Shown in pieces: positions 1-263 of a stretch of 263 bases of DNA. Below the pieces are notes generated by a model. That model was given only the letters and a program-made list of their open reading frames with translations, was not told the DNA's origin and did no database searches. The first letter of the stretch is position 1; every line of letters starts with the position of its first letter. The position numbers and the translations under genes are program-made. Origin of the DNA: a phage; the sequence record X15718.1; one strand, given 5' to 3'.

Positions 1-170
1 GTTCTGCTCGCGATTGTGCTACTGTTGATATTCATCCTCGTACTTCTGGTAATAATGTTTTTGTTGGTGTGATTTGTTCTAGCGCTAAATGGACCTCCGG
101 TCGTGTGATTGGTACCATCGCTACGACTCAGGTTATTCATGAATACCAAGTCCTTCAGCCGCTTAAATAA
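1..170 (+). CDS. G: Major spike protein G of a phiX174-like microvirus, C-terminal portion; 5'-partial (ORF enters from upstream, first complete codon 3-5, stop TAA 168-170)
   Basis: Seen in sequence: the frame with codons at 3-5, 6-8 ... is open from the window start to TAA 168-170 and translates to [55 protein letters not shown]. Established knowledge (from memory): phiX174 G ends ...[52 protein letters not shown]; shared blocks are DC-T-D-PRT-GNNV-VG, QVI and a terminal LQPLK*, with a one-residue length difference. Codon usage is strongly NNT-biased (36 of 55 codons end in T by my count, 21 of the first 22), which is typical of phiX-like phages. The nucleotide sequence differs from phiX174, so this is a related phage. 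No alignment software was run. Confidence 0.86.
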
Positions 171-196
171 AAGGCTGCCGCACTCCCGGTTAGATG

Positions 197-216
197 CCTG
201 CCCAGTGTAGGGCAGG
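197..216 (+). repeat. Perfect inverted repeat / stem-loop: 7-bp GC-rich stem (CCTGCCC 197-203 pairs with GGGCAGG 210-216) and 6-nt loop AGTGTA (204-209)
   Basis: Seen in sequence: GGGCAGG is the exact reverse complement of CCTGCCC. T195/A218 could add one pair across a G196/T217 mismatch, and CTCC 183-186 could pair with GGAG 220-223 as an outer helix. A CTG trinucleotide lies at 198-200 in the 5' arm. There is no T-run after the stem, so it does not look like an intrinsic terminator. Because the phage genome is single-stranded, this hairpin can form in the packaged or infecting DNA. Confidence 0.7.
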
Positions 217-248
217 TACGGAGATACCCGATAAACTAGGAACGTGGA

Positions 249-263
249 AGGCGTTAGCCGCCT
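249..263 (+). repeat. Second short stem-loop, cut by the window end: AGGCG 249-253 pairs with CGCCT 259-263, loop TTAGC 254-258
   Basis: Seen in sequence: AGGCG and CGCCT are exact reverse complements (5 bp). The stem reaches the last base of the window, so its true length is unknown. Short stems like this arise by chance fairly often in GC-rich DNA. Confidence 0.35.

Follow-up and report, generated by a model that had tools for sequence, protein, structure and literature searches.

The window, i.e., the whole 263-nt stretch of DNA analyzed here, comprises the 3′ end of a spike protein gene and the first part of the intergenic spacer that follows it. In a megablast search of phage genomes, coliphage alpha3 was the best match, followed by St-1, phiK, Lilleven and about 10 further Alphatrevirus genomes. 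An exact string search showed that all 263 of the 263 window bases are those of alpha3, with zero substitutions, in two blocks spanning positions 1–215 and 216–263 (215 + 48 nt); the last window base corresponds to alpha3 position 5060, and the two blocks are separated in alpha3 by 8 nt that the window does not contain. The earlier note, which was made from the letters alone, had missed both the identity with alpha3 itself and this 8-nt gap. Reading frame 3 is open from window position 3 to 170, where translation ends at a TAA stop (168–170), and the alpha3 record annotates the CDS of gene G at 4396–4959. The features of the window are collected in Table 1.

Downstream of gene G, the spacer that leads to gene H is 135 nt long in alpha3 vs 8 nt in phiX174 (G stop at 2922, H start at 2931), which bears out the remark in the earlier note that phiX174 has almost no spacer at this place. 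The annotated start of gene H lies 135–136 nt past the G stop in alpha3, St-1, phiK, Lilleven, WA13, WA45 and NC3. Window positions 171–263 are non-coding because annotated H begins only 34 nt downstream of the window end, and every plus-strand frame of the spacer contains one to three stops. The suggestion that at least 93 nt of hairpin-containing, non-coding DNA follow the G stop thus stands: the segment contains a 9-pair hairpin as well as part of a second one, termed hairpin I below. Nor does H begin directly beyond the window, an arrangement that would have turned most of the spacer into its leader; the 34 nt in between carry the rest of the putative origin described below and the ribosome-binding site, the M25640 annotation placing the H ribosome-binding site at 194–199 and H itself at 208.

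Two further reading frames touch the spacer. A 33-aa ORF with a TTG start (window 109–210, plus strand) begins inside G and crosses the G stop into the spacer; gene evidence for it was not found. On the minus strand, a 135-aa ORF, also with a TTG start (alpha3 L001, 1383–1790), stretches over the spacer as well as the 3′ end of G, covers the entire window and was considered as a gene. The stop-free stretch on this strand measures 76–193 codons in most alpha3-like phages and is reduced to only 47–48 codons in IMGVR_L008 and G4. The ORF was rejected as an antisense-frame artefact because it is short in these two, is of low complexity and runs antisense to G, and because microviruses transcribe one strand only. 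Its frame would be shifted by the 8-nt gap.

Table 1. Features of the 263-nt window, with coordinates counted from its first base
Feature	Position	Strand	Basis or remark
3′ end of gene G (major spike protein)	1..170	+	Equals alpha3 NC_001330 4790–4959, within annotated CDS G
First 93 nt of the G–H intergenic spacer; very probably the 5′ part (~70%) of the alpha3 complementary-strand origin (oric)	171..263	+	Alignment to G4 oric and conservation
Stem III, 5′ strand GGCTGCC	173..179	+	Long-range pairing with GGYRG-A-CC in relatives
Local hairpin, 195–203 with 210–218, loop AGTGTA, 9 pairs	195..218	+	ssDNA fold
Stem III, leftover 3′ strand GGCAG	211..215	+	Bulged A and two closing C absent from the window
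Gap junction, ACCGAGCC (alpha3 5005–5012) absent	215..216	.	Comparison with alpha3
Block TACGGAGATAC	217..227	+	Near-invariant in alpha3-type and G4-type spacers; in G4, the 5′ arm of stem-loop II falls within it
Predicted primer template, first 20 of 28 nt	244..263	+	Homology with G4 3970–3997
Hairpin I, incomplete at the window end	246..263	+	5′ arm GGAAGGCG (246–253), loop TTAGC (254–258), CGCCT (259–263)

Similarity of the spacer to the G4 origin

The G4 record (V00657/NC_001420) annotates an ‘RNA primer of replication’ at 3970–3997 and an ‘origin of compl. strand synthesis’ at 3998, both within the 136-nt spacer between genes F and G. The alpha3 G–H spacer aligns to this G4 F–G spacer from end to end. 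Window positions 171–263 align to G4 over their full length, with 70 of 90 positions identical (78%) and a local score of 34, compared with 8.1 ± 1.3 (maximum 15) for 1000 dinucleotide shuffles. This score is the best obtained anywhere in the G4 genome, and the matching segment falls on the primer and origin annotated there. The comparison with G4 oric had been proposed in the earlier note, which placed a candidate primase-dependent origin of the alpha3/St-1/phiK type at this locus; its proposal is upheld by the homology to G4 oric and by the description of Hairpin I in PMC13037366, considered below. The F–G interval, named in the same note as a place where the origin might lie instead, measures only 33 nt in alpha3.

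The alpha3 spacer resembles G4oric in the CTG start, which lies beyond the window end, in hairpin I with its GCGNNAGC loop, in a long-range stem (stem III) that carries a bulged A, as well as in the blocks CTGCCCARTGTRGGG and TACGGAGATAC. Also common to the alpha3 and G4 groups are AAAGGC at the 5′ edge of the spacer, CCCTNCTGC, which contains the CTG start, and AAGCC directly upstream of the ribosome-binding site of the next gene. The two elements differ in map position, the alpha3 origin lying between G and H and G4oric between F and G. They differ as well in hairpin I, where one pair is A–T in alpha3 and C–G in G4 and the loop is TTAG in the former and AAAG in the latter, and at the junction of stems III and II, where the alpha3 type carries the palindrome CCGTACGG whereas G4 lacks it and has GCCTACGG.

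Among 16 alpha3-like genomes, the spacer is 90–98% identical to that of alpha3; the identity of the adjoining 168 nt of G and 168 nt of H goes down to 55–70% in most of these genomes. In ID32 (L020), WA13 (L021) and WA45 (L022), the spacers are 96–98% identical to that of alpha3 and contain the same T...A variant of stem III, whereas on either side the G and H DNA shows an identity of only about 66–69%. This mosaic pattern, read from the sequences, suggests that the origin module has been exchanged by recombination as well as selectively held. A search with a degenerate pattern of hairpin I plus CTG recovered two further true loci in IMG/VR (L029 and L034), and in metagenomes it yielded only chance matches in G+C-rich bacterial DNA.

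Pairing and conserved blocks across relatives

Structures were compared in an alignment of 21 sequences (A3), to which the window was added alongside 16 spacers of the alpha3 type and 4 of the G4 type. Every pair of hairpin I is kept in this alignment (100% paired), and an A–T pair is replaced by C–G in the four G4-type sequences. Its complete 8-bp stem pairs positions 246–253 with 259–266, so that five of the eight nucleotides of the 3′ arm fall inside the window; the earlier note was therefore right that only the 5′ part of the element is held here, the window ending within this arm after about 70% of the whole. Apart from hairpin I (5043–5050 with 5056–5063), the alpha3 genome has no perfect inverted repeat that reaches 8 bp and encloses a real loop, and the string composed of hairpin I and CTG is likewise unique there. 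The mini-hairpin motif GCGTTAGC, at window 251–258, has a single occurrence in the alpha3 genome (5048–5055), within the G–H spacer. The hairpin I loops of all 21 sequences (A3 columns 109–118) keep GCGNNAGC or GCGNAGC, with the loop variants TTAG, CAAG, TAAG and AAAG, and a 3-nt TAG in ID52 and NC6.

A replication origin of St-1 and alpha3 with a Hairpin I, in which an 8-bp stem surrounds GCGTTAGC, is described in a review (PMC13037366), which cites Sims, Capon and Dressler 1979, lists GCGTTAGC with a Tm of 69.5 °C and gives GCGAAAGC as its counterpart in Hairpin I of G4. The motif belongs with the GCGNNAGC/GCGNAGC mini-hairpins of Hirao and co-workers (PMC13037366), and it is kept in all relatives. 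Unlike the mini-hairpin DNA itself, the alpha3 motif sits inside a longer, 8-bp stem, and the same review puts forward a hypothesis on which of these two forms, the short or the full one, is active.

By homology, the full primer template of alpha3 would extend over 5041–5068, equivalent to window positions 244–271. The predicted start, T5068, is equivalent to position 271, and the window ends 8 nt before it. CTG is found at the homologous place in alpha3 (5067–5069, outside the window) and in 20 of 20 relatives. The predicted alpha3 primer reads pppAGGAGGGAAGGCGGCUAACGCCUUCCAC, as compared with AGUAGGGACGGCGGCUUUCGCCGUCCAU in G4.

Stem III, formed by GGCYRCC with GGYRG-A-CC, is paired in 99.3% of the cells of alignment A3, and two of its seven pairs show compensatory changes, namely C–G to T–A in six sequences and G–C to A–T in Lilleven and NC28. 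In WA45 the bulge has moved (GGCA-T-GCC) while all seven pairs are kept. The compensatory changes in hairpin I and stem III may represent as few as two or three events among close relatives, and we treat them as supportive, not conclusive. When folded as ssDNA, the G4 spacer gives exactly three stem-loops (z = −4.69), and stem III is part of its minimum-energy prediction.

The local hairpin of the window competes with stem III for GGGCAG. For alpha3 alone, thermodynamics favours the local hairpin over stem III, and in the window version its pair probability is at least 0.98. Whether its CTGCCC/GGGCAG pairing (198–203 with 210–215) could be the conserved form of stem III was considered. T·G wobbles are weak in DNA, and in 15 of the 21 sequences this pairing is maintained only through such wobbles. 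The long-range stem III was preferred and the local form disfavoured because the latter relies on these wobbles in the relatives.

Stem-loop II behaves differently from stem III and hairpin I. Its G4 form, CGGAGA/TCTCCG, has no complement in the alpha3-type spacers according to both alignment A3 and the folds, and thus no paired equivalent in alpha3. The stem-loop II region of G4 (L007, 3945–3966) has its counterpart at window 217–245, where only a 3-bp CGG/CCG stem (219–221 with 228–230) is predicted for the alpha3 type, and stem II is imperfect also in the G4-like ID52 and NC6. Stem-loop II does not seem to be a family-defining feature, as far as these comparisons go. Only two of the 21 sequences in A3, those of WA45 and ID11, depart from the block TACGGAGATAC, both by a single substitution. 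Its near-invariance without a conserved stem II hints that the sequence itself, not a hairpin, may be recognized.

The ssDNA folding that the earlier note had recommended in the expectation of two or three conserved hairpins returned hairpin I and the local hairpin, the G4-like stem II being absent from the alpha3 type. The folding energy is modest, with z = −1.83 for the part in the window and z = −1.88 for the whole alpha3 spacer as ssDNA. The case for more than chance structure rests on conservation and homology, not on folding energy.

The 8-nt gap

The bases missing from the window, ACCGAGCC, are present in the alpha3 records X60322.1/NC_001330.1, DQ085810.2 and M25640.1 and in an IMG/VR copy (L010). 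Corresponding bases occur in 20 of 20 relatives, as 8 nt or, in the G4 group, 7. The deletion junction was absent from the IMG/VR, JGI/ENA metagenome, GTDB genome, plasmid, E. coli genome and paper-text collections searched. What the window has lost with these bases is the bulged A of stem III, both C of its two closing G–C pairs, and the linker to the TACGGAGATAC block. Their absence lengthens the local hairpin from 6 to 9 pairs, so that it dominates the ensemble. The missing stretch is G+C-rich and self-complementary and adjoins the palindrome CCGTACGG, and no microhomology flanks the gap. The 5′ half of this palindrome (alpha3 5010–5017) is destroyed by the gap, and window 216–221 retains GTACGG.

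As nothing else in the 263 bases departs from alpha3, two readings of the gap are left, namely a faulty source sequence and a real variant with a deletion. In the latter case, a viable alpha3 isolate or laboratory line would have a shortened origin that has lost the base of stem III and the III–II linker and has a new 9-bp local hairpin instead; we regard this as a tentative reading, and a rather doubtful one.

Proposed complementary-strand synthesis from the G–H spacer

We conclude that positions 171–263 are very probably the 5′ part of a G4-type complementary-strand (minus-strand) origin of coliphage alpha3, located in the G–H spacer of the packaged viral strand. The basis for this in the present analysis is the identity with alpha3, the homology to the G4 origin, the strong conservation, and the compensatory changes in hairpin I and stem III. 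The element corresponds to the alpha3 complementary-strand origin, known along with those of St-1 and phiK, in its locus, in its DNA, which is that of alpha3 base for base, and in the 8-bp stem of hairpin I around GCGTTAGC. It differs from the known alpha3 origin in that the window is without ACCGAGCC and ends before the CTG start site. The origin of the alpha3 group is reported to lie between G and H. To go by its title, given in the references of PMC13037366, a 1979 study by Sims, Capon and Dressler (J Biol Chem 254:12615) reportedly found in vitro priming with just SSB and DnaG, without RNA polymerase, DnaB or PriA, for St-1, phiK and alpha3.

In G4, SSB and primase are enough for priming, which starts at the T of a CTG lying 3′ of three stem-loops and gives a primer of at most 28 nt; owing to the stem-loops, regions free of SSB arise that can take two primase molecules (PMC6783573). 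Applied to alpha3, this scheme would proceed as follows. The ssDNA circle entering the cell would be coated by SSB, which would be kept off the folded stem III, the conserved region around TACGGAGATAC, and hairpin I, a very stable structure that contains the GCGTTAGC mini-hairpin. Host DnaG primase could then bind without DnaB or the PriA primosome and would begin an RNA primer opposite the T of 5′-CTG-3′ just 3′ of hairpin I, copying back through the hairpin. Extension of this primer by DNA polymerase III would give the double-stranded replicative form. From homology and the literature we infer that SSB is kept off, that primase recognizes the element and where exactly priming starts; for the mapped alpha3 start we draw on homology and a secondary citation.

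The spacer could instead act mainly at the level of mRNA, either by terminating or stabilizing the G message at its 3′ end or by forming a structured 5′ leader that governs translation of H, with the likeness to G4 being secondary. In Bullavirinae the spacer is transcribed within the polycistronic late mRNA; it ends just upstream of the H ribosome-binding site, and stable hairpins could slow 3′ decay. However, a terminator scan of alpha3 4689–5189 on both strands detected no site of the hairpin-plus-T-run kind, hairpin I being followed by CTCCTGCTAAGCCC and not by a T run, a promoter consensus scan in and around the spacer returned nothing, and Rfam gave only chance-level matches for the window and for alpha3 M25640, none of them in the spacer. 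Moreover, the module precedes another gene in G4, where it lies in F–G and not G–H, which means that its conservation is not tied to any one gene, and the G4 copy is annotated as an origin. A predominantly mRNA-level function is therefore very unlikely, while an added, secondary role of the spacer in the transcript is possible.

Module exchange, as suggested by the alpha3-like spacers of ID32, WA13 and WA45 between their more divergent flanks, also lends something to the idea of a functionless spacer that owes its conservation to recent recombination spreading one copy among phages. Yet recombination alone leaves unexplained both the 78% identity with G4, in which the module occupies another map position, and the double changes that preserve Watson–Crick pairing in two stems, and CTG and the blocks are invariant or near-invariant across both phage groups; we consider this explanation extremely improbable. 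A primosome assembly site of the phiX174 type, in which a hairpin recognized by PriA (n′) loads DnaB before primase, is barely conceivable. The phiX174 primosome assembly site is located in the F–G spacer, hence in the same gene block, and both elements are hairpin-bearing ssDNA signals; but a distant BLAST search gave 31 matches to the alpha3 spacer, all alpha3-like or G4-like and zero phiX174-like, and the homologous G4 element needs SSB and primase alone (PMC6783573). More broadly, the phiX174 site and, in filamentous phages, the minus origin that depends on RNA polymerase are likewise hairpin signals that start complementary-strand synthesis on SSB-coated ssDNA. These two systems differ from the G4-type origin in that no sequence similarity to them and no promoter-like hexamers were found, and another host enzyme is recruited.

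The G4-type origin proposed for positions 171–263 is an element already known: what has been re-identified is the alpha3 complementary-strand origin, not a new candidate. The re-identification as such adds nothing new, and the earlier reasoning from sequence alone was sound. The origins of alpha3, St-1, phiK and G4 are the classic model of a primase that recognizes a folded ssDNA signal without a helicase. The comparison of about 20 genomes provides compensatory support for stem III and hairpin I, not for a conserved stem II. If the shortened origin of the window were real, recognition by primase would tolerate an unclosed stem III as well as an 8-nt shift in the distance that separates the two SSB-free primase sites, and the gap would offer a test, made by nature, of what the two-primase model demands of spacing and of stem III.
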